A stretch of 64,000 nt of DNA from an uncultured Gammaproteobacteria bacterium (GTDB taxonomy: Bacteria > Patescibacteriota > Patescibacteriia > Magasanikbacterales > UBA922), in NCBI GenBank assembly GCA_964522435.1, contig CAZFUL010000001.1, positions 117,075 through 181,074 of the forward strand, given 5' to 3'. Below the pieces are notes generated by a model that worked only from the letters and a program-made list of their open reading frames with translations, was not told the origin of the DNA and ran no database searches. Every line of letters begins with the position of its first letter. Positions within the stretch are counted from its first letter, which is position 1. Both the position numbers and the translations under genes were made by a program. This document shows, one piece after another, positions 3,696 through 53,575 of the stretch.

Positions 3696-3722
3696 CACTG
3701 CCCCCGTTGTTTTTGTCGTCGG

Positions 3723-3908
3723 TCACTTGCGGCGTTTGGGCATCGTGTTTAAGGCAAATGCGCCAGAAATCACGAATAACGTGAGAGAAATATAGGCAAT
3801 CCACTCGGCCAGCCGAGGGAAGCCCAGGCCTTTGGTCGGCAGTGACAGCCAGACCGTAGCGAAGGAAAGCGCAAATGCTTTTGCGCTGATTCTGTTGATA
3901 GTTTCCAT
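3723..3908 (-). CDS. Small 2-TM membrane protein (61 aa) encoded in a G+C-rich islet
   Basis: Strong SD ggagga 6 nt upstream of the ATG on the minus strand. Local GC is about 50% against about 35% in the flanks. Hydrophobic profile with a basic C-terminus (MPKRRK). Confidence 0.45.
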   Translation of the reverse strand: METINRISAKAFALSFATVWLSLPTKGLGFPRLAEWIAYISLTLFVISGAFALNTMPKRRK

Positions 3909-4013
3909 CGATATCCTCCATCCTGTTGGGGGTGTAGGGCTATGCTAATAGCTCTTTTGCTTCTTGTCAACTGCTTGATTTTTTCCTCATGTTTCGCTAG
4001 TATCAATGCTATT

Positions 4014-4988
4014 ATGTGGGTAAACAATATTTTAAAACAAAAAAAACATATTCTTGCCTTGTCACCTATGGCAGACATGACGGATTCTTCGTTTTGCCAA
4101 ATGGTACGCCAAATTGGGGGAGCGGATGTCGTATTTAGAGAAATGGTAAGTAGCGAAGCCATTGTCCGAGAAAATGCCAAAACAATTGGCATGACTGATT
4201 TTGTGGAAGCGGAGCGTCCTATTGTGCAGCAAATTTTTGGCTCTGATCCACTCATTATGGCAAAAGCCGCTGAGATTGTGATGCAGCATGCCGCGCCAGA
4301 GGGGATTGATTTAAACATGGGTTGTCCGGTATATAAAATTACGAGCAATTTTAATGGTTGTGCTTTGATGAAAGATCCAGAACGGGCTGCCGCAATTATT
4401 AAAGAAATTAAACAAGCCATTGGTGATACGCCAGTTTCGGTAAAAATTCGTTTAGGGTGGAGCGATCCAGATGATTTTAAAAAATTTATCCCGGTTATAG
4501 AACAAGCGGGTGCAAGCTTAATTACCGTGCATGGCCGCACCAAAGCGCAAGGCTATAGTGGTAAAAGTGATTGGCAACGGATTGCACAAGCAAAAAAAAT
4601 TGCCACTGTGCCGTTATTAGCGAATGGCGATATTCATGAATGGCATCAGGTTACTGAGGCGCTTGATATTACGGGAGCTGATGGGGTACTCATTGCACGA
4701 GGTGCCTTGGGGAATCCTTGGTTTTTTCAACAATATCTCAAACAAGAGGGGAGTATTTCATTAGAAGAAAGAAAACGAGTGGTACTTGCCCATGCGCAGT
4801 TGCATGTACAACAATATGGAGAGCGAGGCATGGTAACCTTTCGTAAACATTTGGCCTGGTATTTTAAAACAAGTAAAATCGGATTTGAAATTCCAGGTAT
4901 TAAAGAATGGCGGATGAGAGCGATGCAGGTGGAGACCTTGGTAGAATTGCAAGGCTTGTTGCAAGAGCTCGTAGGCGAATCACTATAG
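4014..4988 (+). CDS. dus: tRNA-dihydrouridine synthase (Dus family)
   Basis: LSPMADMTD motif (LAPMAGxTD), FMN-binding TIM-barrel motifs and NMGCP. The real start is probably ATG 4014 or 4068 rather than 3942. Confidence 0.85.
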   Translation: MWVNNILKQKKHILALSPMADMTDSSFCQMVRQIGGADVVFREMVSSEAIVRENAKTIGMTDFVEAERPIVQQIFGSDPLIMAKAAEIVMQHAAPEGIDLNMGCPVYKITSNFNGCALMKDPERAAAIIKEIKQAIGDTPVSVKIRLGWSDPDDFKKFIPVIEQAGASLITVHGRTKAQGYSGKSDWQRIAQAKKIATVPLLANGDIHEWHQVTEALDITGADGVLIARGALGNPWFFQQYLKQEGSISLEERKRVVLAHAQLHVQQYGERGMVTFRKHLAWYFKTSKIGFEIPGIKEWRMRAMQVETLVELQGLLQELVGESL

Positions 4989-5051
4989 GGGGTTCTCTAC
5001 TTTATTAGTCTTTTTTTACTTATTTTAGCAAAATTTAATAATATATATCCC

Positions 5052-5079
5052 AAAAGCCTCTTGACAAAAGGCTTTTTTT
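5052..5079 (+). terminator. Hairpin aaaagcc(11 nt)ggctttt plus T-run after dus
   Basis: Seen in sequence. It overlaps the promoter below. Confidence 0.5.
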
Positions 5080-5089
5080 GTGCTATTAT
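5061..5089 (+). promoter_or_regulatory. Sigma70-like promoter TTGACA-17-TATTAT
   Basis: Perfect -35 TTGACA (5061-5066), 17-nt spacer and -10 TATTAT (5084-5089). It reads into GC-rich islet B and the ORF at 5790. Confidence 0.55.
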
Positions 5090-5255
5090 GTTTCGTTATC
5101 GTCGTATTTCATAACAGCAGCTATTGCCTGTTATTATGAAAACCGACGAGTCGTGTGTTACGACTTACGGTCCAGCGGCATTCCTGCCGCGAGCTGCTAT
5201 AACTGACCCAAGCAGTGTAAATAAATGGGTCCCCGTGGCATGAAGGAGAATACCC

Positions 5256-5516
5256 ATGCCCAATCCCGGTGAAACCCCCAGCACCCCTGCCACCACCTCC
5301 ATGGTGGCGCCCGTCCAGCCGGCCGCCGAGGTGCAGCCGGATCTGGCGTCTGTCGCCCCGGCCGAAGAGCCCCCCACCGTCACGGCGGTGGCCTCTGATA
5401 CCGACGGTAACGGGCTCACCGACCGCGTCGTCATGACCGGGGGGGGGATCATCCCCCTGGGAATCGCGGGAGGGGGGTCCCGTCCCGATCGTCCCCGGAT
5501 GCGCGGTAGCAACTAG
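5256..5516 (+). CDS. Possible small Pro/Ala/Gly-rich protein in a very GC-rich islet (uncertain coding)
   Basis: AAGGAG lies 8 nt upstream of the ATG. The region is over 70% GC and has long ORFs in several frames, so the coding call is weak. Confidence 0.2.
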   Translation: MPNPGETPSTPATTSMVAPVQPAAEVQPDLASVAPAEEPPTVTAVASDTDGNGLTDRVVMTGGGIIPLGIAGGGSRPDRPRMRGSN

Positions 5517-5789
5517 CCCCTCGGCGGGACCTCTTTATATGTACGCGTTCTGCGTATAAAGAGTTCATCTTCTGAACGCAGCACCTGGCCGGTCGCGCTT
5601 TTATAAGCGACCCTGCACAAGCGCTTGACTGTCATCCTCTGACATTCGCGCGACCGGCCCCACAAAAAAGTACATCAATAGTGGTGTGCTTTTTTGTTTT
5701 TATGAGGAATACACTGATATGTAACCAAATTGAATTAAAGGAAAAATAATGATAGTCTAACAAATGAAATTGTATTTAATCGTATTATT

Positions 5790-7181
5790 ATGTTTGCAGA
5801 GTTTAGACCAGAATATTTTTCTATTACAGATATTCATCAATTACCTGCTCAGGAACAGCAACGTCATATTGAATATTATTTAGAAACGAATATACGAGAA
5901 CTTATTCAATCTCGAGGAATACTTTCTGATGAAAGTTATGTGTTTTTAATGGATAGCTTAATGGAAAGGGGGGTATTGGATGCGGTTTTCCGTGATGGAG
6001 AAGATGCTCTGAATCCTCGAGATATACAATATTTAAGTCGATCTGAAAAAGGAAAAGAACTGCTCTTACATTTTTTTTCTAAGATTATGGTGTTGTTTAC
6101 TCCTGAACAATTAATTGATCTGTTAAAACAACAACAAGCCGATGAACAACTTATAGGAACTATTATTGAAAAAGTTCGTTCTCTTGAAAAGAGAAATGAG
6201 TTGGTTCAAGAAGTCTATACAGAATTTTCTAGGGAACCACAGACAGATATATTGGGAATAATAGTCAGCCTATACGAAAAAGGGATATTAACGGCTCGTC
6301 CTATATTTTGGGAAGAACATTCAGAAGATTTATTGCGGTTTAGTGTTCGTACGGGGAAGTCTTTTTCATTAACCTCTTTAGGTTATGTGTATGATACAAG
6401 CCAAAATCGTGAAAGACTTATTGCGGAAATACAAACAGAAAAGACCATTGCTAAAATTGTTATTAATAATGAAGCCGTTTCTGTATTGGAAGTTCTATTT
6501 ATTGCTCCTATAGATCAACAAGATGTCCCTCTTTCGACGGGGAATAATTTTGAAAATCCTAAGGCAGAGTTATATACAAAAGATAGCCCGGAACCAGGAT
6601 CTTCTTTTTGTGTTGGAGGAGCAAATACGTCAGAAGACATAAACAGTTTAGAGAAAATTAACAGTATTGCTATTGATGAAATCGAACGAGTAATGAAATC
6701 ACGAGGTGATCTTGATATCCAAGCGGGAGATTTAAAATTTGCTATTGCTGATAGTGGGTATCTTGGTGCTGAAGATAGCCTTAGGGAAACATTATTAGCT
6801 GATAATGAAACAGTTCAAACATTAGGGACAAATCATCAAACATTAGCTGTAGATTTATTTATTTTTCAGCGCTTAGCATATTTACTTCCTTCTGGTGAAT
6901 CAAAATCTCATATTGATTGTGTGTATGCTGGTGTTCCACTTCGTATTGATTGTAAACTAAGAACGCCAAGTCCTATTGATTCCCCTTTTGGAGATGAGAC
7001 TAGAGGACGTCAAGATATTATTGTAACAAACAAGAAAACAGGAAAATCAATATTTTTTTCTGAGCTACATCCATATATGATGTATCGATATGGGTTTTAT
7101 GAAGGAAAAGGTTGTTCCTATCGTTTAAATCCTAAAGATGTATTCGAGTTATTAAAAACCGATTTAGAAGAAAAAAAATAG
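5790..7181 (+). CDS. Hypothetical protein (463 aa), no recognisable domain
   Basis: Long ATG ORF with host-like composition. No family motifs recognised. Confidence 0.6.
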   Translation: MFAEFRPEYFSITDIHQLPAQEQQRHIEYYLETNIRELIQSRGILSDESYVFLMDSLMERGVLDAVFRDGEDALNPRDIQYLSRSEKGKELLLHFFSKIMVLFTPEQLIDLLKQQQADEQLIGTIIEKVRSLEKRNELVQEVYTEFSREPQTDILGIIVSLYEKGILTARPIFWEEHSEDLLRFSVRTGKSFSLTSLGYVYDTSQNRERLIAEIQTEKTIAKIVINNEAVSVLEVLFIAPIDQQDVPLSTGNNFENPKAELYTKDSPEPGSSFCVGGANTSEDINSLEKINSIAIDEIERVMKSRGDLDIQAGDLKFAIADSGYLGAEDSLRETLLADNETVQTLGTNHQTLAVDLFIFQRLAYLLPSGESKSHIDCVYAGVPLRIDCKLRTPSPIDSPFGDETRGRQDIIVTNKKTGKSIFFSELHPYMMYRYGFYEGKGCSYRLNPKDVFELLKTDLEEKK

Positions 7182-7234: not shown

Positions 7235-9031
7235 ATGACCGATACAGAACGTATTAAAGAGGCAATGGATATCGTCGGCTTTATTGGTGAATATGTGCCC
7301 TTAAAATCTTCTGGCATCCACCATAAAGGGCGCTGTCCATTTCATTCTGAAAAATCACCCTCATTTATGGTAAGCCGAGAGCGAAATTCTTGGCATTGTT
7401 TTGGTTGTAATAAAGGGGGCGATATTTTTAGCTTTGTCCAAGAAATTGAAGGCATGGAATTTGTTGAGGCCTTAACGTTTTTAGCAAATCGTGCAGGTAT
7501 TGAATTAACCGGTAAACGAGCTACGGGAGAAGGTGGCACACAAAAAAATAGATTAAAAGAGATCATGACTGATGCGAGCAAATTTTATCATCATATTTTA
7601 GTCAACATGTCAGCAGCAAAAGCGGCAAGAGACTATGTAGCAACACGCGGCGTGAGTGACCAAAGTATTGTTGACTGGCGCATAGGGTTTGTGCCAGATC
7701 AATGGGATTTACTCACCAAATATTTATTAAAAAAAGGACATGCGATTGATGACCTTGTTGCCGCGGGGCTTACTATTAAACGGGATAATGCCAATCCGCA
7801 AAATTATAAAGGATTTTATGATCGTTTTCGTGGACGCATTATGTTTCCTATTAACGACGTCCATGGATATACCGTTGGTTTTACTGGACGAGTGCTTGTG
7901 GAAACAGAAAAAAGTGGGGGAAAGTATGTAAATACGCCTCAAACACTGTTATATGATAAATCACTGGTAGTATTTGGTTTGGATAAAGCAAAAAAAGTCA
8001 TTAAAGAAAAAAATGTGGCGGTTATTGTAGAAGGACAAATGGATGTGATAGCTTGCCACCAAGCAGGAATGAAGAACGTCGTGGCAAGTAGTGGCACGGC
8101 GCTTACAGAACAGCAGGTAGGCTTATTAAAACGCTATAGTGATAACATGGCTATGGCCTTTGATATGGATGCGGCGGGTCAACGAGCTGCAAAGCGGGGG
8201 ATTGATATTGCCATTGAACAAGGCTGTAGTGTGCGAGTGATTCGTATTCCTGATGGAAAAGGAAAAGATGCGGATGAGTGTATTCAAAAAAACAAAGAGG
8301 TATGGTTTGCCTCGGTGGAGAATGCACAAGATATTATGCAATGGTATTTGGATAAAGCGCTGAGCAAGGTAACCAATATTCATGATCCAAAACAAAAGCA
8401 GCTATTGGCAAATGAATTACTTCCAGATATTGCCCGGATTCCCTTTGCCGTAGAACAAGATCATTGGCTACAACGAGTGGCGCAATTGTTGCAGGTAGAG
8501 GTAGCGGTGTTACGAGAAGACATGAAACGGTATCCGGTAAAACCAGCGCCACAAACAGCCCCACAACAACCAGAGACGCCGCAACCCAAGGCGGCTGTTA
8601 CGGCGGTAAAAAAACCAGTCGCGCTCTCTCGTAAAGAACAATTGCAAGAACGTCTGTATATGTTGTTATTACGATTCACGGATTTACCTCAGATAGATAC
8701 CTTTTTTTCGTATCATAAGGCGCTTGAACAGGGGGCGTATAGCGCTCTTTACGAATATATAAAAAGCAGGTATACTCTTGGGAGTGCCAGTAGCGCTTTT
8801 GTAGGAGATATGCCTCTTTCGTTAGAGGTGCTTTTACTTAAAGCAGATGCTGAATTTGGTCATTTAATGCAAGACCAAGCGAGTATCGAGGCGAAAGGCT
8901 TATTAGAGGCTATTTACAACGAATGGAAAAAAGAACGACGCCAATTTCTTGAACGAGAAATTCAGCAAGCAGAACAGCAGGGCAACAGTGCCCAATTGGC
9001 CGCATTACTTCAAGAAGTACAACAATTATAA
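7235..9031 (+). CDS. dnaG: DNA primase DnaG
   Basis: CHC2 zinc finger ([13 protein letters not shown]...[11 protein letters not shown]) and a Toprim region ([11 protein letters not shown]). Followed by rpoD. Confidence 0.9.
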
Positions 9032-9051
9032 TTTATATTTTTTTTCGGCAC

Positions 9052-10428
9052 ATGCCAGCAAAAAAAAATACAACCAAACGAACTGCCGCGGTGAAAACCG
9101 TTGCAACCAAAAAACGTGGAGTGAAACCCACTGCACGCAATACATCTCATAGTAAGCCTGTTGTTAAAAAGACAACGGCTTCAACAAAAAAAGCTCCTGC
9201 AAAACGCAGTATCATCGTTACCAAAACAAAAAAACCTGTCAGTAAAAAGCCGTCGCCTGATCTGCGACCAACAAATAGTCCTAGTAGAAAAGTACCACTC
9301 GAACCGGTGCTTCCTGTTGTTGAACCAACAGACGAAGCTGTGCGTATCCTGGTGCATAAAGGAAGAGGCAGAGGATTTTTAACAGAAAAAGAAGTAATCG
9401 CATTGTTTGATCGCTTAGAACAATATGTCTTTATTTACGAAGGATTTTTAGATTTACTTGATAAAAATAATATTGCGATTGTGGAAACCCCTGGCGGAGG
9501 GGGAGGATTACTCGGTCACTCAAAAGATCGTGCCGCCTTGTTATCTCATATTCAAGGCAAACAACCAGATGAAGAACGAGGGACATTTGACTTAGGAAAA
9601 ATATCTCAAGATTCTATTCAGATGTACTTGCGTGAAATTGGAAAAATTCCGTTGCTTTCTGCAGAAGATGAAGTGTCATTGGCAAAGAGAAAAGAGCGAG
9701 GAGACAAAATTGCAGAGCAACGCATGATTGAAGCAAATTTGCGCTTGGTGGTCTCTATTGCGAAAAAATTTGTGGGCAAACAACTCACCTTACTTGATTT
9801 GATTCAAGAAGGAAACATTGGGTTGTTTCGTGCGGTAAAAAAATTCGATTATCGTAAAGGATATAAATTTTCCACCTATGCCACGTGGTGGATTCGTCAA
9901 GCCATTACTCGTGCACTTGCAGATCAATCTCGTACCATTCGTATTCCGGTGCACATGGTAGAAACCATTAATCGCTTTAAACAAGTACAACGACGTTTAT
10001 TGCAAGATTTAGGGCGTGATCCAACACCAGAAGAATTGGCTGCGGAAATGGGTGAAGAATTGGTGAAAGTAAAACAAATTATCAAAATTTCTCAAGATAC
10101 GATTTCTTTAGAAACCTCTGTCGGCGATGATGATGACGATGATTCTCCGTTATCTGACTTTATTGAAGACGTAAAGAATGCGAGCCCTTCTCATGTGGCT
10201 GGGGTTGAACTCTTAAAAGAATATATTGATGAAGCCATTTCTCAATTATCTCCTCGAGAACAAAAGATTTTGGAAATGCGCTTTGGGTTGAAAGATGGGG
10301 TAACGCATACCTTGGAAGAAGTAGGAAAAGAATTTGATGTGACACGTGAACGTATCCGTCAAATTGAAGCAAAAGCTTTGGAAAAAATAAAAAACTTTGA
10401 TGTAATCCAAAAGTTGCAGGATTACTAA
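9052..10428 (+). CDS. rpoD: RNA polymerase sigma-70 factor RpoD with a Lys/Ala/Pro-rich N-terminal extension
   Basis: Regions 2-4 motifs ([40 protein letters not shown]; region 4 [22 protein letters not shown]). N-terminal ~90 aa resembles histone H1. Confidence 0.9.
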
Positions 10429-12638: not shown

Positions 12639-15466
<2,828 letters not shown>

Positions 15467-15953: not shown

Positions 15954-17393
15954 TTGTTTATGTCACTAAATACCTTAAGCGTTACAGAAGCCTGTATTGG
16001 CTTACGAAAAAAAGAATTTTCCGCGGTAGAATTAACCGAGGCCTGTTTAGATAGAATTGATGCGCGTAATGACCATATTAATGCCTTTATTAGTGTTAAT
16101 AAAGAGCAGGCGCTTGAACAAGCCCGTGAAGCAGATACACAATTAGCACAAGGCACGGCACCCATATTGGCTGGGATTCCGTTTTCGGTAAAAGATGCTA
16201 TTTGTACCAAAGATATTCGTTCCACTGGTTCTGCAAAGATATTAGATAATTATGTTCCACCCTTTGATGCAACGGTGATTGAACGTTTGTGTACAGAAGG
16301 TGGTATTGTGATTGGAAAAACAAATTGCGATAGTTTTGGCCATGGCGCGAGTAATGAAAATTCTATGTATGGCCCGGTGCGAAATCCGCATGATGAAAGC
16401 AAAGTGTCCGGAGGATCAAGTGGTGGTTCTGCGGCGTCTGTTGCCGATGATCAATGTTTGTTTTCTGTTGCAGAAGATACGGGTGGCTCTATTCGTCAGC
16501 CAGCAGCGTTTTGTGGTATTGCTGGGTTACGCCCAAGTTATGGACGCAACTCTCGCTACGGTATTATGCCTATGGCAAGTTCTCTTGATACGGTTGGCCC
16601 CATGGCAAAAAGCGTCGAAGATATTGCGCTCTTAATGGAAATTATGGCAGGGCAAGATCCCTATGATCTTACCTCTGTGCCAGATGCGGTCCCTGCGTAT
16701 CGTGAACTCATTCAACAATCGCTTAAGGGCTTAACCGTCGGGATTCCAGAAGAATATTTTTCACTCGAGGGCATGGATGAGGAATCTCGTCGTATGGTAG
16801 AAGAGGCGATACAGCAATTTACTGAGCTCGGTTGTACGCTTAAACGAGTATCCTTGCCACATACCAAATACGCTATTCCTACCTATTATATTGTGGTTCC
16901 CTGTGAAGACAGTTCTAATTTGGCGCGCATTGATGGTATTCGCTATGGGGTGCAAGAAAAACACGAACGCTTGGTAGATATGTATCGCTATTCTCGTGAT
17001 CGCGGATTTCCCCCAGAAGTAAAACGCCGTATTATGATTGGCACCTATGCTTTATCTGCGGGCTACTATGATGCGTATTATCGGAAAGCACAAAAAGTGC
17101 GCACGCTTATTAAACAAGATTTTGAACAAGTGTTTGCCAACGAAGTGGATGTGTTAGTAACACCAACATCACCTTATCCTGCGTTTGGCATTGGAGAAAA
17201 AGCAAATGATCCCTTAGCAATGTACTTGGCAGATGTGTTTGTGAGTCCTGCGTCTTTGGCCGGAGTGCCCGCATTATCTGTTCCGGTAGGTAAAACGGCT
17301 GCAGGATTACCGGTGGGTATGCAAATTATTGGACCCCGACTTTCTGAAGGGCTTGTGTTACGCGTGGGACACCAATATTCAATGAACAACTAG
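15954..17393 (+). CDS. gatA: Glutamyl-tRNA(Gln) amidotransferase subunit A (amidase signature)
   Basis: GGSSGGSAA amidase signature and a K...S...S catalytic context. Confidence 0.9.
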   Translation: MFMSLNTLSVTEACIGLRKKEFSAVELTEACLDRIDARNDHINAFISVNKEQALEQAREADTQLAQGTAPILAGIPFSVKDAICTKDIRSTGSAKILDNYVPPFDATVIERLCTEGGIVIGKTNCDSFGHGASNENSMYGPVRNPHDESKVSGGSSGGSAASVADDQCLFSVAEDTGGSIRQPAAFCGIAGLRPSYGRNSRYGIMPMASSLDTVGPMAKSVEDIALLMEIMAGQDPYDLTSVPDAVPAYRELIQQSLKGLTVGIPEEYFSLEGMDEESRRMVEEAIQQFTELGCTLKRVSLPHTKYAIPTYYIVVPCEDSSNLARIDGIRYGVQEKHERLVDMYRYSRDRGFPPEVKRRIMIGTYALSAGYYDAYYRKAQKVRTLIKQDFEQVFANEVDVLVTPTSPYPAFGIGEKANDPLAMYLADVFVSPASLAGVPALSVPVGKTAAGLPVGMQIIGPRLSEGLVLRVGHQYSMNN

Positions 17394-17445
17394 CAATTAA
17401 CAATGAACAATTCTTTAAAATTTTTGTTAATTGCTAATTGTTAAA
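17392..17445. promoter_or_regulatory. Perfect 12-bp inverted repeat agcaattaacaa / ttgttaattgct spanning the gatA stop and the LOG start
   Basis: Seen in sequence. AT-rich TTAATTG-type repeats lie between the arms. Confidence 0.3.
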
Positions 17446-18782
17446 TGTTAATTGTCTCTATGGATAAACAATATAGCTTTGGATTAAATGAAACAGGCAA
17501 CTACCGCGAACCGTGGCAGATTTTTCGTATCATGTCTGAATTTGTGGAAGGTTACCAATTTTTAAGCACGCTCAAAAAAGAAGTGACCATATTAGGATCT
17601 GCGCGCTTTTTACCTCATCAAGAATATTACAAAGTTGCGCAAGAGTTAGGCGCACTGCTCGGAAAATCTGGCTATAACACGCTTACTGGTGGCGGACCAG
17701 GGATTATGGAAGCAGCAAACCGTGGTGCGTTTGAAGTAGGGGGAGAATCTATTGGCTTAAATATCGAACTCCCGCTTGAACAAAAACTCAGTCCTTATGT
17801 AAAAAAGTCTGTATCGTTTTCGTACTTTTTTACTCGCAAAGTCATGTTAACTTCACCCGCACATAGTTTTGTGTTTTTTCCCGGAGGCTTTGGGACCTTA
17901 GACGAATTTTTTGAAGTAGTCGACCACATGGATATTGGCAAAATGAGTGAAGTGCCCGTTATTTTGGTAGGAAAAGAATATTGGGAACCCTTGGTTGCCT
18001 TTTTAGAAGATCGCTGTTGTGCGCATGGAACAACCTCGCATACCCGTATTCAATCATGGAAAATCGTTGAAACGGCAGAAGAAGCCTTTGCCCTTATTCA
18101 AGAACATGGAAAAGAAGCAAATAATTGCGAGCTTTCTCCCGCGCGCTTTCATAGTGGAGAATATGATGTGGATTGGAAAGTATTCCGCATTATGGCAGAA
18201 CTGGTGCAAGGCTTTGAGTTTTTAACCGGATTAGTAGAAGACGTCACCGTGCTTGGGACAAAATCCATGGAGCCAACAAATCCTTTTTACGAACAGGCGT
18301 ATCAATTAGGTCGTTCTTTAGGCGAAAATGGCTATGCCGTGGTTACCGGAGGAGCAACGGGCGTTGCCGAAGCAGCAAACAAAGGAGCCATGGCGGTCGG
18401 TGGAGAATCCATTGGGATTGGTATGGAAGTAGAAGGGGAGAATCGCTTAAACGAATTTGTGAATCGTTCTATTACCTTTAAATTTCCCTTTACCCGTAAA
18501 CTTATTGTCACGGCGCCATCCAAAGCCTTTGTCTTTTTTCCTGGTGGATTTGGTACCTTGCATCAACTGTTTGAAGTATTAACCTTAATACAAACCGGCA
18601 AAATGCCTCGCGTGCCAATTATTTTATTTGGAGAAACCTATTGGCAAGGGGTTGATGACTTTATTCGCAATGTGTTGTCTGAACGCTTGCAAACCATTAA
18701 TGTAGAAGATACCAAACTCTATACTATTGTTGATTCTGTAGAAGACAGCCTTACCCTTATTAATGATTTTCGGGGGAAATAA
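17445..18782 (+). CDS. Tandem LOG-family (TIGR00730 / Rossmann-fold nucleotide-binding) protein
   Basis: Two copies of GGGPGIMEAANRGA and PGGFGTL(D/H)E motifs. 445 aa. Confidence 0.75.
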   Translation: MLIVSMDKQYSFGLNETGNYREPWQIFRIMSEFVEGYQFLSTLKKEVTILGSARFLPHQEYYKVAQELGALLGKSGYNTLTGGGPGIMEAANRGAFEVGGESIGLNIELPLEQKLSPYVKKSVSFSYFFTRKVMLTSPAHSFVFFPGGFGTLDEFFEVVDHMDIGKMSEVPVILVGKEYWEPLVAFLEDRCCAHGTTSHTRIQSWKIVETAEEAFALIQEHGKEANNCELSPARFHSGEYDVDWKVFRIMAELVQGFEFLTGLVEDVTVLGTKSMEPTNPFYEQAYQLGRSLGENGYAVVTGGATGVAEAANKGAMAVGGESIGIGMEVEGENRLNEFVNRSITFKFPFTRKLIVTAPSKAFVFFPGGFGTLHQLFEVLTLIQTGKMPRVPIILFGETYWQGVDDFIRNVLSERLQTINVEDTKLYTIVDSVEDSLTLINDFRGK

Positions 18783-28127: not shown

Positions 28128-28131
28128 AACA

Positions 28132-28164
28132 AAAACCCTATACCGTTCTGGTACAGGGTTTTTG
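28132..28164 (+). terminator. Rho-independent terminator (ccctgtacc.../ggtacaggg + T-run)
   Basis: aaaaaccctataccgttctggtacagggttttt. Confidence 0.55.
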
Positions 28165-28238
28165 AATTGCTCCGACGGGGGTGGGGAACTGCCGAAGCAA
28201 TTCATCCGCGTCGTCGGGGCGGAACTCCTTGTTTGTCG

Positions 28239-28760
28239 TCAGGGGGTCCCTGTATTGTACGGGTCAAGGAAGATGAACCGTTCTTCTTTGGGATAGTACC
28301 CTGGGTATACCGTCCAGACCGTGAAGTGCCATTGCTGGTTGCGCTCTTTGCGCATCCGAACTTTCATGGTGAGTTGGGTAGTTTTTGGAGCCAGGATGAG
28401 CTCCTTGGGGAGGACGGGAATCCCGGATGACGGCCTTCTCAGCTGCTGTTGCAAGTATGGCTGGGTGGGGACACGGGTCACCCAGCCAATATGGCGGGGA
28501 AGACTCAGGGTGATCGAATGATCTTCTTTACCCCGTTCAATTGCGCTGCGCAGGGCCGCGCCCAAGTGTGCAGCAACCTCTTGGTCATCGACGCAGGCTT
28601 GCAGGTTTGGCCAGGCAGAAATATTTCCGGCCAGTGGAGCGCCTGCCAGACGGAAATGGTCAGTTTGTACCTGGACTATGGTCTCGTGGGGAAAGATGAC
28701 CTTGACCACCGGTGCGCCGTCCGGTCCCATAGGAAGGATCAGATATTTGGCGAAAAGCAT
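28239..28760 (-). CDS. Hypothetical protein (173 aa) in GC-rich islet C
   Basis: RBS aaggaa upstream of the ATG on the minus strand. GC about 55%. The + strand ORFs here are shadow ORFs. Confidence 0.45.
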   Translation of the reverse strand: MLFAKYLILPMGPDGAPVVKVIFPHETIVQVQTDHFRLAGAPLAGNISAWPNLQACVDDQEVAAHLGAALRSAIERGKEDHSITLSLPRHIGWVTRVPTQPYLQQQLRRPSSGIPVLPKELILAPKTTQLTMKVRMRKERNQQWHFTVWTVYPGYYPKEERFIFLDPYNTGTP

Positions 28761-28772
28761 GAACGTTTCCTT

Positions 28773-29375
28773 TCAGTTGTTGTGTTTTTTGTTCATGTGG
28801 CGAATTGCGATTGCCACACTGCCGTTGCCCATCACCCCGATGAGGATGGGGTGTACGAGGGATACCAGTTGTTGCTCTGGCTGCCAGTGGATGACCAGGT
28901 TCGTAGTCATGATCATATACGACACCACCGCAATGTACCAGGGCAAGATGTTTTCTTTGTTGCCTTTGAGTACACCGAGGACGGTGGGAATGAACGATAG
29001 CACATATACTGCTTGAAGCAGCAAGTTGGCCATTACATCATCACCGCTGGTACGCCAGTAGTAGACAATGACGCCGGCGATTGCCAGAATCATCCATTCT
29101 GTTGGCCCGATTTTGCTAAAGCGCTTGTTGAACGCTGCGTAGCCAAGGATCAAAAGCGATCCGAGGCATGCTGCGCCAGTTGCTGCCCAGCGGCTCAGGT
29201 CACCATCTACCACTTTGAAATAGGTGACTGAGTTGACCACATTGACGCTGCCCCAAATTGCCCAGGTTGCGGCGTTTGGGGTGATATTGCCCTTGATCAC
29301 GTAGTACAGGTACATGCTGAGCAAGAGTAGCACACCCGACATTGAAATGAGTGAAAGAATATCAATGAGCGCCAT
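28773..29375 (-). CDS. Hypothetical polytopic membrane protein (about 200 aa) in GC-rich islet C
   Basis: RBS aaggag 6 nt upstream of the internal ATG (MALIDIL...). The longer ORF to 29429 was rejected as an upstream extension. Confidence 0.45.
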   Translation of the reverse strand: MALIDILSLISMSGVLLLLSMYLYYVIKGNITPNAATWAIWGSVNVVNSVTYFKVVDGDLSRWAATGAACLGSLLILGYAAFNKRFSKIGPTEWMILAIAGVIVYYWRTSGDDVMANLLLQAVYVLSFIPTVLGVLKGNKENILPWYIAVVSYMIMTTNLVIHWQPEQQLVSLVHPILIGVMGNGSVAIAIRHMNKKHNN

Positions 29376-29427
29376 TGCAGGCTCCTTTGTCTGACGTTTT
29401 TCTTGGCAGAGACTAGAATAGAACATC

Positions 29428-30288
29428 ATGATTTTAATCAGTTGTCAATATAGCGTATGTATGGGAAAATATTCGTATATGCGTGATACCACACACAACA
29501 GAGCATGGGTACGAAACATCGGTATTGTCTGTTTTATTTTTATCCAATTCTTGGGAATTGCCATTAATCTTATAAAGCAGCAAGATTGTTATAAACAAGA
29601 GCAGTCCATAGAGCAACAGTTTTCCAGCAGGCAAGAAGGAGATGTTCGTGTATTAAAAGAAGATATGCTCAATCATTTTGATTGTGGCATGTCGTTTGGC
29701 GTGCCTGCGCCTATTGTCTATGTCAAAGATGATACAGGCAGTGTTGGGGTATTGCCTCAAAGTATTGTGTTTAATATTGTGCTCTATGCTGCCGTTTTTT
29801 TTGCGGTTATGCGTGGGTATGCCTTGTTCAAACAACAGCGCTATACGCGTGTAGGTGTGGAAAGCATATTGTGTATTGTGGGATTGTTTATTGCTGCTAT
29901 ATTATTGCAATTATCGTTTCGGTATAGTGGGCTTATGTATACCGGAGGGCCTGTAATACGATTTCCTTCGTTGATACCATCAACACAGTCGTTTGTGGAT
30001 ATAGGGGCTGAGTATGTGTTTTATGTTCTTACTATGCTTGCCGCAGGATTTTTTTCTGTATATACCTGGTATGGTTATGCGGCAATTATTTTTTTATATC
30101 TTGTATTATTTGGAATCGTTGTATACCGGATACAAAAAATATATATACCACTCTCATATAAAAAATTGTTGACCTGGGGAATTGTTGGATTTATTTTTTT
30201 CTATCTTTTTATGTCGTATAGTGCGTTTATTACGCAAGGGGTGGTTGATCTGAATTGTTTACATAACAATAGTGGTTGTGACGGCTAG
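29428..30288 (+). CDS. Hypothetical polytopic membrane protein
   Basis: ATG ORF with multiple hydrophobic segments. Start uncertain. Confidence 0.5.
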   Translation: MILISCQYSVCMGKYSYMRDTTHNRAWVRNIGIVCFIFIQFLGIAINLIKQQDCYKQEQSIEQQFSSRQEGDVRVLKEDMLNHFDCGMSFGVPAPIVYVKDDTGSVGVLPQSIVFNIVLYAAVFFAVMRGYALFKQQRYTRVGVESILCIVGLFIAAILLQLSFRYSGLMYTGGPVIRFPSLIPSTQSFVDIGAEYVFYVLTMLAAGFFSVYTWYGYAAIIFLYLVLFGIVVYRIQKIYIPLSYKKLLTWGIVGFIFFYLFMSYSAFITQGVVDLNCLHNNSGCDG

Positions 30289-31702: not shown

Positions 31703-31785
31703 TTATTTATACACAAGACAAGGTTTGACAAACATCTATTTAGGGCGTAGGGTAGAAACATCGTATGAAAAGATACTCAGTAAAT

Positions 31786-31876
31786 AATCATCGTCGTTAC
31801 AGCGACCTCGGATAACTTCCGCTAGGAATTGTTATCATTGAGGTCGCAGCAATCCCGCTATAATCGGGATTTTTTA
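31786..31876 (+). ncRNA. Candidate small structured RNA, unit 1 of a tandem paralogous pair (conserved 5' box, long hairpin, intrinsic terminator)
   Basis: aatcatcgtcgt box, then hairpin gacctcggataac...gttatcattgaggtc, then atcccg-ctataa-tcgggat plus T6. Confidence 0.4.
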
Positions 31877-31916
31877 TTTATTTATGAATAAGTGATATAT
31901 GAATTGTTTTGTGTGT

Positions 31917-32010
31917 AATCATCGTCGTCGCGTGGACCTCCGATAACATTCGTTAGGTATTGTTATCGTTGAGGTCCGCTATATCGCCACATTGGGCGAT
32001 ATTTTTTTTC
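31917..32010 (+). ncRNA. Candidate small structured RNA, unit 2 (structure conserved with sequence changes)
   Basis: aatcatcgtcgt box, then hairpin ggacctccgataac...gttatcgttgaggtcc, then atatcgcc-cacatt-gggcgatat plus T8. Confidence 0.4.
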
Positions 32011-32134
32011 CGTACATTATGGGAAGAGAAGGACAGACGATAGCAATATCTGATAGTAGCCTCTTCTCATAATCAGTAGCAATGCTGTTGCTGAACGTGG
32101 GAAGAGTAACGCTGTTGTATAGGAGGACGTTGTC

Positions 32135-32950
32135 ATGGCACCATACTTTTCTTGGCTGGTAGCGTCTGGAGTTATTGAACGAACAATGCCCGATGGAGGG
32201 GTGGTTCATGTTTCCACCTTGCCTGACGCAGCGGTGGCAGCTGCGGGCTGGTGGGGGACGGAAAATCTGCGTCCCGAGTATTGCTTGAGCGGCGGCTGCT
32301 TGTTTGATGCGCGTTGGCAGCTGCAGTTTCCTGCACAAAACAAAGGACACCAAGGCGCTGTTCGTACCTTGTCCTTGCCGCGTGAGCGCGATGATGCGTA
32401 TGCGCGTTTGAAGAAAGGACAAACGCCACTTGCCCTGCACCTGCCGAAAGGGCCTGGCGTGTATCAGCAGACGCTCATTCGCTGGCAAGCAGCGGTGTTT
32501 CGTCGCTTGCAGCCCACACAGATTCTGTACCATCTTCCGACCGATGAATATCGTGTCTACATTCAAGAGATGGAACAACATCTGGGCTATGCCGTTCCTG
32601 CTGCCTACACACAGCTTGACCAGCTCGCTGTCTCTATTCGTGCGCTTATGGTGCGGGAGTTTGGGGCTGCTCTCATGGCACGTGTTCGCTTCGTGCGTCC
32701 TATGCACACGCATGGAGTGAAAGATACGACACAGTCCTACCTGCATCCCTACTTGTTTCCGGAGTTGTATGGGATCACTCCTGCCAATACCGTTGGTGTG
32801 GAAGATCTTGTTGAACTCCGTCTTGCCTACGAAGCATGGCGCATGCGCGGACACCAGATTTCGGTGTACGCAGCTGCCCTTGCCCTGCCTCCTCCCTACG
32901 CAGATAAAACGCTGCGGCCTGGGGAATTCACGACCGTTGAGCTGATGTGA
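32135..32950 (+). CDS. Hypothetical protein (271 aa) in GC-rich islet D, strong SD
   Basis: taggagga lies 8 nt upstream of the ATG. GC is well above the flanks. The antisense ORF 31979-32854 is judged a shadow. Confidence 0.5.
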   Translation: MAPYFSWLVASGVIERTMPDGGVVHVSTLPDAAVAAAGWWGTENLRPEYCLSGGCLFDARWQLQFPAQNKGHQGAVRTLSLPRERDDAYARLKKGQTPLALHLPKGPGVYQQTLIRWQAAVFRRLQPTQILYHLPTDEYRVYIQEMEQHLGYAVPAAYTQLDQLAVSIRALMVREFGAALMARVRFVRPMHTHGVKDTTQSYLHPYLFPELYGITPANTVGVEDLVELRLAYEAWRMRGHQISVYAAALALPPPYADKTLRPGEFTTVELM

Positions 32951-33011
32951 TATACACCTCAGCTCCGGTCACCATCCCATAAATAGTTATTTTTTATTAT
33001 ACTATATCCAT

Positions 33012-34004
33012 ATGTTCTATCTCTCAAAAAAAAATCTTAATGCATTACGCATCGGGAGTTTATGTTGTGCGACGGGTGGTGGTTTATCGTATCGTGATCA
33101 TGGAAAAGCCTTTGATGCTGCGTTATCAAAAAAATCAAAGATTCTCTGTAAAGAAATAGCCGAATTTCACGCAACTGACTATCTTGCGTCTATCTATGGT
33201 GTTGGAGATCCATCACAAGTAAAAGGAGATTTTGTTTCTGTGATTAAGACAGGAGTAAAAAAGTATACACAACTCACTGGGATTACACCGAAAGGAATTA
33301 TTCCTGGAGAAATTGGTGCGGAAGGCTTAGCATTTCAGGCTGCTAGCTATCTTAATTTGCCAGTCGTTGATTCTGATTTAGTTGGTGGAAGGGCTGCTCC
33401 AGAAATTCAAATGGATGTATTTTCTGTGTACGATCTTCCACTTACTCCATTATTAGCGGTGAGTATGAATGGAAAAGAGTTATTTCTCAACGGTGCATTT
33501 GGCGCAAAAGAAATTGAAGGATTGATTCGTTTATTTTTTAAAAATAATGGCAGTAATGGATTACTTATTGGTTATCCTATACAAGCCAAACAGTATCAAC
33601 AATATGGAATGAGTGGAACGATTTCTCGGGCAATTGCTATTGGCGACTGTTTGTTAAAAAAGGATTTGCCGGGAGTATTAGAACATACTCAAGGAAAGAT
33701 TCTTGGTGAAGAAACAATAGACGCCGTCTCGCTCTCTAGTCAGGACGGATTTTTGCAAGGATGGCTTTCTCTTGGTGATATGAGTGTCTTGGTAAAAAAT
33801 GAATATATTCTGGTAAAGAAAAAAAATAAGATGCTTTGCCAGGCACCAGAGAATATTATGCTACTTGATAAAGACTTGTTTCCGATTCACAGCACACAGG
33901 TACAACAATATGCAGGAAAAAAAGTATCTGTGTTCGTTATTCCTGGACAAGGATATTGGAAAGTACAACGAGCAAAAAAATTATGGGATTCAGCAAAAAA
34001 ATAA
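33012..34004 (+). CDS. DUF917-family protein (hydantoinase-like fold)
   Basis: Glycine-rich ATGGGLSY plus overall family resemblance. Moderate confidence. Confidence 0.55.
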   Translation: MFYLSKKNLNALRIGSLCCATGGGLSYRDHGKAFDAALSKKSKILCKEIAEFHATDYLASIYGVGDPSQVKGDFVSVIKTGVKKYTQLTGITPKGIIPGEIGAEGLAFQAASYLNLPVVDSDLVGGRAAPEIQMDVFSVYDLPLTPLLAVSMNGKELFLNGAFGAKEIEGLIRLFFKNNGSNGLLIGYPIQAKQYQQYGMSGTISRAIAIGDCLLKKDLPGVLEHTQGKILGEETIDAVSLSSQDGFLQGWLSLGDMSVLVKNEYILVKKKNKMLCQAPENIMLLDKDLFPIHSTQVQQYAGKKVSVFVIPGQGYWKVQRAKKLWDSAKK

Positions 34005-41024: not shown

Positions 41025-41039
41025 TATGGTGCTATGATA

Positions 41040-41330
41040 CGGGCAACGTCTGGTGCGGGTGAAGAAACACCCGATTGGATGCGGTTATTGTTTCTTGTTC
41101 CTAACGCTCAAGAAACAATAGGAGAGTCCTTTGACTCTTGAGAGGGGGGGGTAACCTCACTCTCCCGAGTATCAGTGCGCTGCACTGGATCAGACGCCAG
41201 GGGGCTGAATCATAAACAGAGAAACGTTTTTTCCTCACTTCACACGCACAAAACGTACACCCTGCGGGGAATACTGCATGAAGTCAGAAGGAATAACGAT
41301 TCACTGGAGTGGTTCAGCTCCCGCTCCAAT
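41040..41330. other. GC-rich non-coding structured region (islet E) between convergent rplU and recR: candidate ncRNA
   Basis: No convincing ORF. Several stable hairpins (aagaaaca...tgtttctt; ctcaaga...gagtc-cttt-gactc...tgag; cagtgc-gct-gcactg). GC is well above the flanks. Confidence 0.3.
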
Positions 41331-48876: not shown

Positions 48877-48895
48877 TAAAAAATATAAAGAAATA

Positions 48896-48925: not shown

Positions 48926-49070
48926 TTGTGAACCTAAGAATAATTGATTGGAATTATAGTCTATGAAGAATTGAAGCAATGGAAAAAACTAAGAGAATCT
49001 TATTGACATAATTATCATTTTATGATATTGATCTCTGATCAATCAAATTTCTACCAGAGGAGGTACTCCT

Positions 49071-49463
49071 GTGCTGAATAAAATCCTGCTCATTGAAGAC
49101 GACATCGAGACAGGGATCTTGATCCGGGGGGGGCTGCAGGGCGTAGAGGATGAAAACTGGGAACCCCTGTATGACGTGTTCTACGCAACCAACCTGAACG
49201 ATGCACGGTTGCGGCTCGACAAAGGGGACATCGACCTCTTGATATCCGACACCTGCGTCGATAGCAAGAACCGGCCTGATGCCCACGTGCTGATCGAGGA
49301 GGTACGGCAACGCTACCCCAATATGCCGATTCTCGGAATGTCTAGTTCTGACTTCTACCGAGATATCATGTTGGAGGCGGGATGCAACCGCTTCTACACC
49401 AAATCACCCCGTGACCTGCAGTTCGCAGGGCTGCTGGAATTAGTGCAGGAGCTTCTGCCTTGA
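49071..49463 (+). CDS. Stand-alone CheY-like receiver domain protein, GTG start, in GC-rich islet F
   Basis: gaggagg lies 7 nt before the GTG. ILLIEDD, phospho-acceptor D in DLLISD, and T/K positions are conserved. GC is about 55% against AT-rich flanks. Confidence 0.6.
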   Translation: MLNKILLIEDDIETGILIRGGLQGVEDENWEPLYDVFYATNLNDARLRLDKGDIDLLISDTCVDSKNRPDAHVLIEEVRQRYPNMPILGMSSSDFYRDIMLEAGCNRFYTKSPRDLQFAGLLELVQELLP

Positions 49464-49564
49464 CGTAGCGACCCTCCATTTGTGAAGACTCAAAGGCAAG
49501 CGCGAGTATAAACGCTTCCAATCCCCATCCTAAAATTATTTTGAAAAAAAGTAGTTTGAGGATA

Positions 49565-49598
49565 AAAAATCACCGTTAAAACGGTGGTTTTTTATTTC
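49565..49598 (+). terminator. Bidirectional rho-independent terminator (caccgtt-aaaa-cggtg flanked by A- and T-runs)
   Basis: Seen in sequence. Confidence 0.6.
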
Positions 49599-49632
49599 TG
49601 TGACCCCGGTGGGGAATCTCACTGCTCGTGAC
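49599..49632 (-). pseudogene. Degenerate partial copy of the tRNA-Lys 3' end (variable loop, T-arm, acceptor 3' strand)
   Basis: tgtgaccccggtggggaatctcactgctcgtgacca versus the intact gtgaccccggtggggatcgaacccacgacca. About 30 nt of homology with a 7-nt insertion and substitutions. Confidence 0.45.
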
Positions 49633-49787
49633 CAGCTAAAGCGCTGGTCACTGCGCTTTGAGAAACCTTCGGGTTTCTCAATACTCATCCTCCGCAAGTA
49701 AGGGGGCGCTGCCCCCTTACCATCCCCCAATTCGATCCCCCTCGACCCAAAAATAAAACCCCCACATAAGTGGAGGTTTTATTTTAG

Positions 49788-49860
49788 TGACCCCGGTGGG
49801 GATCGAACCCACGACCATTGGCTTAAAAGGCCACTGCTCTACCGGCTGAGCTACAGGGTC
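49788..49860 (-). tRNA. tRNA-Lys (anticodon UUU); CCA not encoded
   Basis: Manual cloverleaf: acceptor GACCCTG/CGGGGTC, D-arm GCTC-AGCCGGTA-GAGC, anticodon loop CTTTTAA, T-arm GTGGG-TTCGATC-CCCAC. Confidence 0.85.
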
Positions 49861-52567: not shown

Positions 52568-52595
52568 TAGGCTATTCACCGTAATCACTATATCT

Positions 52596-53177
52596 ATGCC
52601 TCTCGATAAAAAATATCTGAATCAACTCCGAAATACCTTGCATGATCAAGCGCTAATGCGCCGAGAAATTATTAAGCAAGGTGGGGATGCGTTACACCAT
52701 GCAAAGCGCGCAATTTTTGCCTTGCATCGCGATCAGCTTGGTGAGGCAAAAAAGAAACTCGATGAGGCACTCAGTTTATTGAAACAATTATCCAAGCGGT
52801 ATGGGAAACAGCCAGAGATGCATACGGAAGGATCATATAAAGCAGCACTCGAAGAATATGTGGAAGCAGTATTGCTGTACCAATTTGTAGAAAAAAGAAG
52901 CGTGGGAAAAATTACCTCCATTGCCGTGCCGACCGATGTGTATTTGGCAGGGTTGTCTGATGTGCCCGGAGAATTATATCGCTACGCTATTCGCGCAGCA
53001 ACCGCAGGGGATACAAAAACGGTACAGGATTGTGAGGCTATGTCGAGTGATATATTAGCGGAACTTATTGAATTTGATGTGACCAAATATCTTCGCACCA
53101 AATTTGATCAAGCAAAAGCCGCCCATCAAAAATTAGAAATTGTCTTATACGAATTAGCGATTCGCGATAAAAAATAA
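52596..53177 (+). CDS. Translin-family-like protein (tentative)
   Basis: Overall helical pattern resembling archaeal/bacterial translin. Based on recall only. Confidence 0.4.
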   Translation: MPLDKKYLNQLRNTLHDQALMRREIIKQGGDALHHAKRAIFALHRDQLGEAKKKLDEALSLLKQLSKRYGKQPEMHTEGSYKAALEEYVEAVLLYQFVEKRSVGKITSIAVPTDVYLAGLSDVPGELYRYAIRAATAGDTKTVQDCEAMSSDILAELIEFDVTKYLRTKFDQAKAAHQKLEIVLYELAIRDKK

Positions 53178-53271
53178 AACAGCACCCGTTGACGGGTACT
53201 GTATAATTGACTAGGATAATCGGGTCGGTGGCGCAGGCCTCCAGACCCGCGCCGATTTCGTTTGTTTCTCC

Positions 53272-53493
53272 TTATCGATCGCGATGCTCTCGAGTGTTTT
53301 TGCTCACTCGTTGCATCAGTCGTTGCCATGTTTTGACAACCCAGCCGCGCTCGCGCTTGTGCAGATATTTGTTCTGCCGGCGATTGCAGTGTTTGCATTG
53401 GAACGTTGCGTAGACGCCTTCTCCTTTCATGAAGCGATCCCGATAGACCATTGTCTTTCGACAACATTTCGGTCCTTGGGGTAACCGTCCCAT
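53272..53493 (-). CDS. Small basic zinc-ribbon protein (74 aa) in GC-rich islet G
   Basis: ggagaaagg SD upstream of the ATG (minus strand). CC...CxxC pattern (PKCC...CKHC). Highly basic. Confidence 0.35.
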   Translation of the reverse strand: MGRLPQGPKCCRKTMVYRDRFMKGEGVYATFQCKHCNRRQNKYLHKRERGWVVKTWQRLMQRVSKNTREHRDR

Positions 53494-53575
53494 CACGTAG
53501 GCCTTTCTCCCGCATAGGGGGTGTGTGGGTGCCGATAGTATAGCGAAGTATATTGTCTTGTCAATTGTTTTGCGT

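Follow-up and report, generated by a model that had tools for sequence, protein, structure and literature searches.

Shine-Dalgarno-led GC-rich islets in a mostly Shine-Dalgarno-free stretch of a probable Patescibacteria chromosome

We asked why a stretch of bacterial DNA whose genes are AT-rich and mostly begin translation without a Shine-Dalgarno (SD) site should be interrupted by short GC-rich islets whose genes all carry one. The stretch in question, the 64-kb piece of contig CAZFUL010000001.1 that was analysed (hereafter the window), has a mean GC content of 40.5% and holds an ordinary chromosomal gene set, comprising dus, dnaG, dnaB, recR, rplU, mraZ-rsmH-ftsL, a Mur ligase, a P-type ATPase, msrB and 3 tRNAs; it is probably a piece of the chromosome of a bacterium of the Patescibacteria, or Candidate Phyla Radiation (CPR). 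An initial annotation had listed seven islets, at about 3.7, 5, 28, 32, 41, 49 and 53 kb, and had proposed that they were either many independent insertions from several donors or the product of mis-assembly or engineering. The account that we favour, if by a modest lean, is a combined one, in which the islets form a class of SD-dependent accessory genes that were for the most part acquired horizontally, together with one ancient member that has been maintained. This ancient member is the gene for a 271-aa protein in the 32 kb islet, which we call fam271.

Translation starts and composition of the islets

SD sites were called strictly, as a 5-mer of the SD core lying 4-12 nt ahead of the start codon. 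By this definition an SD preceded all seven islet open reading frames (ORFs), compared with 1 of the 56 backbone genes (Fisher p=1.4e-8). The backbone count stayed at 1/56 when starts anywhere in the first 30 codons were admitted, the rate at random positions being 3.9%, and duplex energies agreed with the 5-mer contrast between islets and backbone. The SD was also missing from backbone genes that lie 4-30 nt behind their predecessor, that is, from operon-internal genes. A TANNNT box was present at -16 to -9 in 23 of the 56 backbone genes, compared with 14% of random positions, and frequently took the form TATACT, TAAAAT or TAGAAT. In many backbone genes this -10 box stands only 6-10 nt upstream of the ATG, a proximity that suggests leaderless mRNAs. 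Taken together, these data suggest that the core genes follow an SD-independent, largely leaderless style of translation, which we did not find documented for CPR in the literature searched. The predicted folding of the start region differed as well, with a median energy of about -11 kcal/mol for the islets compared with -6.5 for the backbone (p=0.001 for -20..+40; p=7e-5 for +1..+60).

GC-rich segments were sought by a local log-likelihood scan in which Markov-1 simulations served as the null (95th percentile of the maximum score, 13.0). Five segments were significant, namely 5143-5663 (63.7% GC, score 53.1, rising to 77% in its peak 100-nt window), 28169-29340 (54.3% GC, score 47.8), 32188-32978 (56.5% GC, score 43.7), 49098-49506 (55.7% GC, score 20.6) and 53221-53534 (55.4% GC, score 15.1), while a segment with a tRNA-Lys at 49598-49860 was borderline (score 12.2). 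The islets at 3.7 kb (3669-3872, score 9.2) and 41.0-41.3 kb (41040-41207, score 7.4) were not significant by composition and are no stronger than an ordinary intragenic fluctuation at 13047-13183, which scores 9.9.

Third-position GC content (GC3) was 0.54-0.82 in the islets compared with ~0.33 in the backbone, and leucine codons followed suit, CTG and TTA making up 40% and 4% in the islets and 8% and 35% in the backbone, respectively; several islets show a usage of the CTG/CTC type. High expression was ruled out as the cause of the high GC3, since ribosomal protein and NusG genes have the GC3 of the backbone. The minus strand carried 4 of the 7 islet ORFs compared with 6 of the 56 backbone genes (p=0.0095). 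Third-position composition was heterogeneous among the seven islet ORFs (chi-square p=1.4e-7), but fam271 and an 86-aa ORF of the 5 kb islet drive this heterogeneity, and the other five ORFs are indistinguishable (p=0.32). With two deviant ORFs and five homogeneous ones, the data point to about three compositional classes rather than to seven donors.

These results leave parts of the initial annotation standing and remove others. The division between a mostly SD-less backbone and SD-led islets proved sharper than had been claimed; the foreign look of the islets in GC3, codon usage and SD, their frequent orientation against the backbone and a GTG start (in the ORF at 49071) were all borne out. 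Five of the seven islets are significant outliers, the 3.7 and 41 kb islets falling within ordinary fluctuation, and the statement that islets carry SD genes holds for all seven islet ORFs but not for the 41 kb islet, which is non-coding. The islets do differ in GC, although two ORFs are responsible for this, and the idea of a different donor for each goes beyond the roughly three classes that can be resolved. The GC segmentation that had been suggested as a check gave opposite answers by method: recursive entropy segmentation over the whole window made zero splits, islets of this size being too small a fraction of 64 kb, whereas the local scan placed five segments above its null.

The borders of the islets follow gene signals, in that the GC-rich stretch starts at or just past the SD and stops at the terminator, the preceding promoters and leaders being AT-rich. 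Promoter-like and terminator-like sites enclose the 3.7, 5.2 and 53 kb units, and terminators end the 28 and 49 kb units, all of these being consensus matches only. Three-position GC periodicity, homologues and confident models for two proteins indicate that the bulk of islet DNA is protein-coding. PHROGs and NCBIfam gave no useful match for the islet ORFs, and Rfam scans, run at gathering thresholds and permissively on four islets, returned only tRNAs and terminator-like noise. No boundary direct repeats were found at any islet except at the tRNA-Lys of the 49 kb islet, and no regulatory motif was common to all islets, the sole candidate being a weak link through the octamer ATCGTCGT between two leaders.

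fam271 and its locus across Patescibacteria

The 32 kb islet (31709..32950, plus strand) holds two small ORFs with an HRR motif and then fam271 (32135-32950, plus strand), which has a GC content of 0.556 and is led by the SD TAGGAGGA. It is followed by a DUF917/S-Me-THD gene (33012..34004, plus strand; GC 0.375, GC3 0.26) that has no SD and carries TATACT 8 nt before its ATG; we used this gene as a synteny anchor and compositional control for fam271. The loci compared were those of the window, L001, L002/L003, L004-L007, L009-L011, L012, L018 and L019. At every recovered locus (11/11 lineages), fam271 lay immediately upstream of the DUF917/S-Me-THD gene. An SD stood ahead of fam271 in all 11 lineages (-6.6 to -15.8 kcal/mol), with none ahead of the DUF917 gene, and the GC content of fam271 exceeded that of its neighbour in all 11, by +0.02 to +0.19 (sign test p=0.0005). 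In L002, a genome of 27% GC, this excess was just +0.02.

We then compared the divergence of the two genes. The fam271 and DUF917 identity matrices agree on the related pairs L004-L010 (0.49 and 0.59, respectively) and L001-L006 (0.68 and 0.73), showing co-divergence, and four-fold degenerate sites are saturated in both pairs (27-44% identical). Since the GC excess persists although synonymous sites are saturated, it is not the leftover composition of a recent transfer; rather, it is a gene-specific steady state. Across lineages, A3 is strongly depleted in fam271, G3 is enriched and T3 is nearly unchanged, while the third positions of the other islets of the window are C3-rich. The composition of fam271 is thus maintained by selection or a gene-specific bias whose mechanism was not found; the candidates are selection on the mRNA or its codons, GC-biased gene conversion (PMC4450053) and a bias from A to G on the coding strand. 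Patchy distribution was looked for in the 32 kb islet alone and was not seen there: all 11 lineages have fam271, in synteny with DUF917 and diverging along with it.

Homologues of fam271 share 29-41% identity and were found only in CPR assemblies, namely Magasanikbacteria, a 'Saccharibacteria' metagenome-assembled genome (MAG) and Parcubacteria- and Patescibacteria-group MAGs; a scan of viral contigs gave no relative, and Pfam and NCBIfam gave no match. It is this restriction of the homologues to CPR that makes a CPR bacterium the probable source of the window. AlphaFold modelled the protein confidently (pLDDT 92.8, pTM 0.89), and we count fam271 as a real protein on the strength of this model. 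The predicted fold resembles that of class-I aminoacyl-tRNA synthetases (aaRS; TrpRS/TyrRS) and cyclodipeptide synthases (CDPS), being Rossmann-type with an added N-terminal beta domain. It differs from the catalytic domains of cyclodipeptide synthases and class-Ic aaRS in its low identity to them (6-10%) and in this extra domain, and its locus differs in that fam271 is always paired with DUF917 and has small HRR-motif ORFs upstream. An antisense ORF at 31979-32854 was rejected as the gene, since the plus-strand frame is backed by homologues and by the structure model and the antisense frame is not conserved in L004.

The first of the two HRR-motif ORFs, MKRYSVNNHRRYSDLG (31765-31815, plus strand), enters a hairpin that is followed by a terminator at 31851-31871, and the second, MNCFVCNHRRRVDLR (31899-31946, plus strand), likewise enters a hairpin followed by a terminator at 31981-32002; the z scores of the two hairpins are -4.9 and -4.2. 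In 8 of 9 loci (those named being the window, L001, L002, L004, L006, L007 and L010), fam271 is preceded by one or two small ORFs, 15-36 aa long, that share the conserved motif [H/F]-R-R-x-W, written in varying codons. From their sequences, the HRR-motif ORFs are candidate attenuator leader peptides, with CGU-CGU arginine codons, or candidate precursor peptides, and either role would explain why the 5' region is long and why an SD is needed. In other genomes, genes for a GCS2 ligase, a GATase or DIT1/PvcA stand after fam271-DUF917. The fam271 locus may represent an aminoacyl-tRNA-dependent peptide pathway in CPR.

The same mosaic was present in other Patescibacteria contigs. In L004 (Magasanikbacteria, backbone 40% GC), a 55-58% GC islet with fam271 is followed by the native DUF917 gene and then by a 63-67% GC islet. 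The backbone of this contig has a GC3 of 0.25-0.35 and no SD, fam271 has a GC3 of 0.68 and an SD of -15.8 kcal/mol, and the second islet is a 407-aa gene (8397-9620) with a GC3 of 0.87, so that the SD is found solely on GC-rich genes. Gene GC content along the L010 locus runs 0.32, 0.33, 0.52, 0.41, 0.58, 0.60, 0.39 and 0.41, with an SD only before the GC-rich genes (for example GGAGGGGGAGG); the genes at 3441-6121, adjoining DUF917, have a GC3 of 0.72-0.73 and strong SDs and lie between AT-rich, SD-less genes. The interval between DUF917 and the GATase gene holds different, non-homologous GC-rich SD-led genes in L004 and L010, which are related, indicating that such genes come and go, as would be expected of a flexible class supplied by horizontal transfer. 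In L015 (Komeilibacteria), a homologue of the 200-aa protein of the 28 kb islet belongs to a run of genes that are mostly SD-led and have a GC3 of 0.37-0.50, compared with a GC3 of ~0.2 and no SD in the backbone around the run. When 138 genes from seven loci were pooled, SD-led genes lay above the median GC3 of their own locus (p=1.4e-5). A literature search turned up no description of this SD/GC dichotomy in CPR, although the literature searched is incomplete and this is hence weak evidence of novelty.

Origin of the islets

The combined account that we favour can be set out as a sequence of steps. The AT-rich core genes start translation without an SD, many of them probably from leaderless mRNAs, and the islets are a second gene class of short units, mostly self-contained, each with a promoter, an SD-bearing 5' untranslated region (5'UTR), 1-2 small ORFs and an intrinsic terminator. 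GC-rich mRNA would be more structured near the start codon and barred from structure-free, SD-independent entry, and would rely on SD pairing with 16S rRNA; this need would make the SD and GC-richness travel together. Most islets would be cargo from GC-richer, SD-using sources in about three compositional classes, with one islet adjoining what would be a tRNA-Lys integration scar. The exception is fam271, an old resident that has kept its SD and its GC excess, with A-poor and G-rich third positions.

Several points weigh against this account. No donor lineage was identified for any islet, and no integrase, transposase or target-site duplication was found at five of the six coding islets; integrases and tyrosine recombinases were likewise absent from the proteins scanned, which were part of those encoded in the window. 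Use of the SD by the host ribosome is assumed, the 16S 3' tail lying outside the window, in which neither an rRNA gene nor rpsU is present. The SD and mRNA structure are linked by correlation alone. Start codons were read off the ORFs, and NCBI starts agree for several proteins but not for all. The 86-aa ORF of the 5 kb islet has no match in profile libraries (these were what was searched, and large protein databases were not), a homologue search with the 173-aa ORF of the 28 kb islet returned no match, and the receiver-like ORF of the 49 kb islet has only one relative, a distant one from a metagenome (32% identity). Finally, if the composition of fam271 is kept by selection, that of the other islets could be too, which weakens the case for horizontal transfer.

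Closest to the initial annotation is the view that all seven islets are independent, fairly recent insertions from several donors, whose GC has not yet drifted to that of the host. Their atypical GC3 and codon usage, heterogeneous third positions and the few or no detectable homologues of several islet ORFs would be expected from such insertions, as would the repeat at the tRNA-Lys and the variable GC-rich genes at one locus of L004 and L010, and transfer and genomic islands have been reported to be common in Patescibacteria (PMC12455944). We nevertheless consider this view rather unlikely, because fam271 is syntenic and co-diverges with DUF917 in 11 lineages with its GC excess and SD persisting despite saturation, five of the seven ORFs are compositionally alike, two islets are not significant outliers, and most islets lack boundary repeats or mobility genes. 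The proposal of many independent insertions thus does not extend to all seven islets, and the direct repeats that were to be checked for at the boundaries were found at the tRNA-Lys islet (26 nt) and at none of the others. The converse view, that all islets are native and form an SD-dependent expression class whose GC is kept up by selection or else by a bias, in mutation or conversion, that is specific to the gene, draws on fam271, since fam271 is SD-led and GC-rich in 11 lineages with a strand-asymmetric A-to-G shift at third positions. The 200-aa family of the 28 kb islet, too, is SD-led and GC-richer in a Komeilibacteria genome, SD presence is associated with GC3 across loci, and in Bacteroidia there is precedent for ribosomes that ignore the SD while rpsU carries a strong one for autoregulation (PMC9976891, PMC13000453). 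Selection could here act on mRNA stability or structure, on rare-codon control or on the avoidance of spurious SD-independent starts. Even so, the excess of only +0.02 in L002 at 27% GC means that no fixed GC level is required, the 407-aa gene of L004 with its GC3 of 0.87 resembles a plain import, related genomes differ in islet content, and no regulatory motif is common to the islets beyond the weak ATCGTCGT link; we regard this view, including the selective forces named, as decidedly unlikely.

Two further explanations were weighed. Because RNA genes stand out in AT-rich genomes, the islets might be GC-rich as structured RNA genes, and the tRNA-Lys in the 49 kb islet, the folding of 49616-49776 (-72 kcal/mol, z -7.3) and of 41036-41245 (z -3.3) and the strong hairpins in the 3' part of the 5 kb islet are in keeping with this; Rfam, however, matches tRNAs only, even at permissive thresholds, and islet DNA is mostly protein-coding by periodicity, homologues and two confident structure models, which makes it highly improbable as a general explanation. 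Assembly chimerism, contamination or engineering could produce the abrupt composition shifts in what is apparently a metagenome-derived contig, whose proteins were found only as singletons in the collection searched, but the same backbone resumes after 0.3-1.2 kb at each islet, the islet borders match SD and terminator signals with AT-rich promoter or leader regions before the GC-rich ORFs, and the same mosaic occurs in unrelated data sets. Moreover, both junctions of the 32 kb islet recur through synteny and conserved leader peptides in independent assemblies, the synteny being repeated in 10 other independently assembled contigs (NCBI, JGI, ENA, Logan). An artefact of this kind is very unlikely, and the mis-assembly or engineering raised by the initial annotation is not supported.

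The remaining islets, side features and related systems

The most GC-rich islet (5061..5697, plus strand) consists of a promoter-like TTGACA-17-TATTAT (5061-5089), the SD AAGGAG and a Pro/Ala/Thr-rich 86-aa ORF (5256-5516, plus strand; GC 0.71, GC3 0.82), followed by hairpins at 5531-5563 and 5587-5659 and a terminator at 5662-5697. Pfam, PHROG, NCBIfam and Rfam gave no match for this islet. The N-terminal part of the 86-aa ORF is rich in Pro and Thr, and a hydrophobic stretch flanked by Gly leads into a basic tail. The ORF may be what remains of a larger surface protein that came from a high-GC source. Right after the near-consensus promoter lies a mini-ORF, MFRYRRIS (5088-5114, plus strand), which overlaps a hairpin at 5099-5149; it enters this hairpin, which has 22-nt arms, upstream of the islet ORF. 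The octamer ATCGTCGT, which encodes Arg-Arg, is common to this mini-ORF and both fam271 leaders, and three of its four copies in the window are within these leaders.

The 28 kb islet (28130..29446, minus strand) is a two-gene unit that ends in a terminator at 28164-28130. Its first gene (29375-28773, minus strand; SD AAGGAG) encodes the 200-aa protein, whose family has 1266 representatives at E<=1e-3. Pfam gave no match, but an AlphaFold model (pLDDT 91.2) matched the KDEL receptor and cystinosin in Foldseek with a probability of 0.99-1.0 and a TM-score of 0.62-0.68; as modelled, the protein has the 7-transmembrane (7-TM) fold of PQ-loop, SWEET and KDEL-receptor proteins, with two three-helix bundles. 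The second gene is the 173-aa ORF (28760-28239, minus strand; SD AAGGAA).

The 49 kb islet (49040..49860, both strands) combines a receiver-like ORF, a terminator, repeats and a tRNA-Lys. The ORF encodes a stand-alone receiver-like protein of 130 aa (49071-49463, plus strand), with the SD GAGGAGGT, a GTG start and a GC3 of 0.71; PF00072 scored 22.2 bits against it (E=1.7e-4), below the gathering cut-off of 30.2, and no relative was found in viral contigs. A bidirectional terminator lies at 49562-49595 and a tRNA-Lys(UUU) at 49787-49860 (minus strand). Direct repeats of 26 nt (49590-49615 and 49777-49802), made up of a T-tract and the last 16 nt of the tRNA-Lys, stand 187 bp apart and bracket a hairpin-rich segment of 161 nt (49616-49776, minus strand). 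This segment folds into three near-perfect GC-rich hairpins with a long-range closing stem (-72 kcal/mol, z -7.3), and has no family match in Rfam. There is no gene in it, and the proteins scanned included no integrase; possible readings are a miniature mobile element and the decayed scar of an integration. Neither ARAGORN nor Rfam reported anything at 49598-49786, where an acceptor-stem partner is also missing, and a tmRNA or tRNA-like reading was rejected on these grounds.

In the 53 kb islet (53179..53564, minus strand), a promoter-like TTGACA-16-TATACT (53564-53537) and a leader of ~40 nt with GGAGA/AAAGG precede a 73-aa ORF with a pair of cysteine motifs (CxxC...CxxC; 53493-53272, minus strand; GC 0.51), and a terminator follows at 53202-53179 (minus strand). 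A 129-aa ORF at 53126-53515 was dropped for this Cys-pair frame. The weak 3.7 kb islet (3617..3970, minus strand) is built similarly, with a promoter-like TTGACA-17-TAGCAT (3970-3942), the SD GGAGG, a membrane-type 61-aa ORF (3908-3723, minus strand; GC 0.52, GC3 0.61) and a hairpin with 15-nt arms (3617-3692); the SD-led 61-aa ORF was preferred to a 112-aa ORF at 3583-3921. The other weak islet (41036..41245, plus strand) is a non-coding stretch of ~50-55% GC between rplU and recR that folds moderately better than shuffled sequence (z -3.3) and has no match in Rfam; we consider it a candidate small RNA. An extended -10-like TGCTATGAT precedes it.

Two features outside the islets were also observed. 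Within the lowest-GC stretch of the window, the minus strand carries a gene for an mrr-type restriction endonuclease (25766-26653; GC 0.32), which has no SD. The gene is flanked by two copies of a 98-nt direct repeat (25672-25769 and 26745-26842; 98% identity), in which the promoter and the opening nine codons of a ygjP-like gene at 26814 are duplicated. The interval 25672-26842 is the insertion of an AT-rich cassette and so mirrors the GC islets. A 35-nt AT-rich inverted repeat (17422-17456 and 56640-56674, 83% complementary) with TTAATTG/TTAACAA-like units lies just upstream of the gene at 17445 and just after a tRNA-Thr, with a local partner at 17373-17403.

The islets share several traits with known systems. 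Phage morons, reportedly described by Hendrix, Juhala et al., are said to be additional genes that bring a promoter and a terminator of their own and deviate in composition; like them, the islets are autonomous promoter-ORF-terminator units between resident genes whose composition is unlike that of their neighbours, but they lie among housekeeping genes rather than in a prophage, and PHROG gave no meaningful match for islet ORFs and the viral contig scans were empty. With genomic islets and atypical genes they have in common deviant GC and codon usage, short accessory genes with few homologues, a location (in one case) by a tRNA with a duplicated 3' end, and a content that varies between related genomes. 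In contrast with these, they are tiny (0.3-1.2 kb), show no mobility genes, are coupled one-to-one to a switch in translation initiation and include an ancient member that has not drifted to the host. The atypical genes described with GeneMarkS-2 are more often lower in GC (PMC6028130), whereas the islets deviate upward. The same work describes a leaderless signature for its group C, a Pribnow-like box ~10 nt before the start (PMC6028130), much like the -10 box ~10 nt before the start of many first-in-operon backbone genes here; internal or leadered genes are expected to use a ribosome binding site in that group, however, whereas internal backbone genes here are SD-less. Bacteroidia, whose translation is SD-blind and in which a few regulatory genes, rpsU among them, are SD-led (PMC7797042, PMC9976891, PMC13000453), offer a similar picture of nearly SD-less genes and a handful with a strong canonical SD, implying distinct translational treatment. 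They belong to another phylum, though; the SD-led genes here are accessory or of unknown function and not rpsU or prfB, and leaders are A-rich there, whereas many core genes here look leaderless.

Compositional outliers in MAGs are usually taken as recent transfer or contamination. Since the outliers described here coincide with a switch in translation start and recur in CPR lineages, such islets should not be trimmed as contamination, and gene prediction trained on the SD-less core may assign wrong starts to islet genes or overlook them. The SD signal could also mark an accessory gene class in CPR genomes. As fam271 illustrates, a 'foreign' composition can last very long, which challenges the dating of transfers by drift toward host composition and points to an unrecognised selective or mutational force. 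An unlikely but broader proposal is that some Patescibacteria run two expression regimes, an AT-rich SD-independent and largely leaderless core and a GC-rich SD-dependent class whose composition is maintained gene by gene and not taken over from donors, as exemplified by fam271; if true, the SD/GC signature would be the mark of a distinct programme of translation or regulation, or of mutation or conversion acting on particular genes, and not of foreign origin. The fam271 locus itself, with its HRR peptides, aaRS/CDPS-like enzyme and DUF917 gene, is a candidate for a new peptide-related pathway in organisms thought to be nearly free of biosynthesis.

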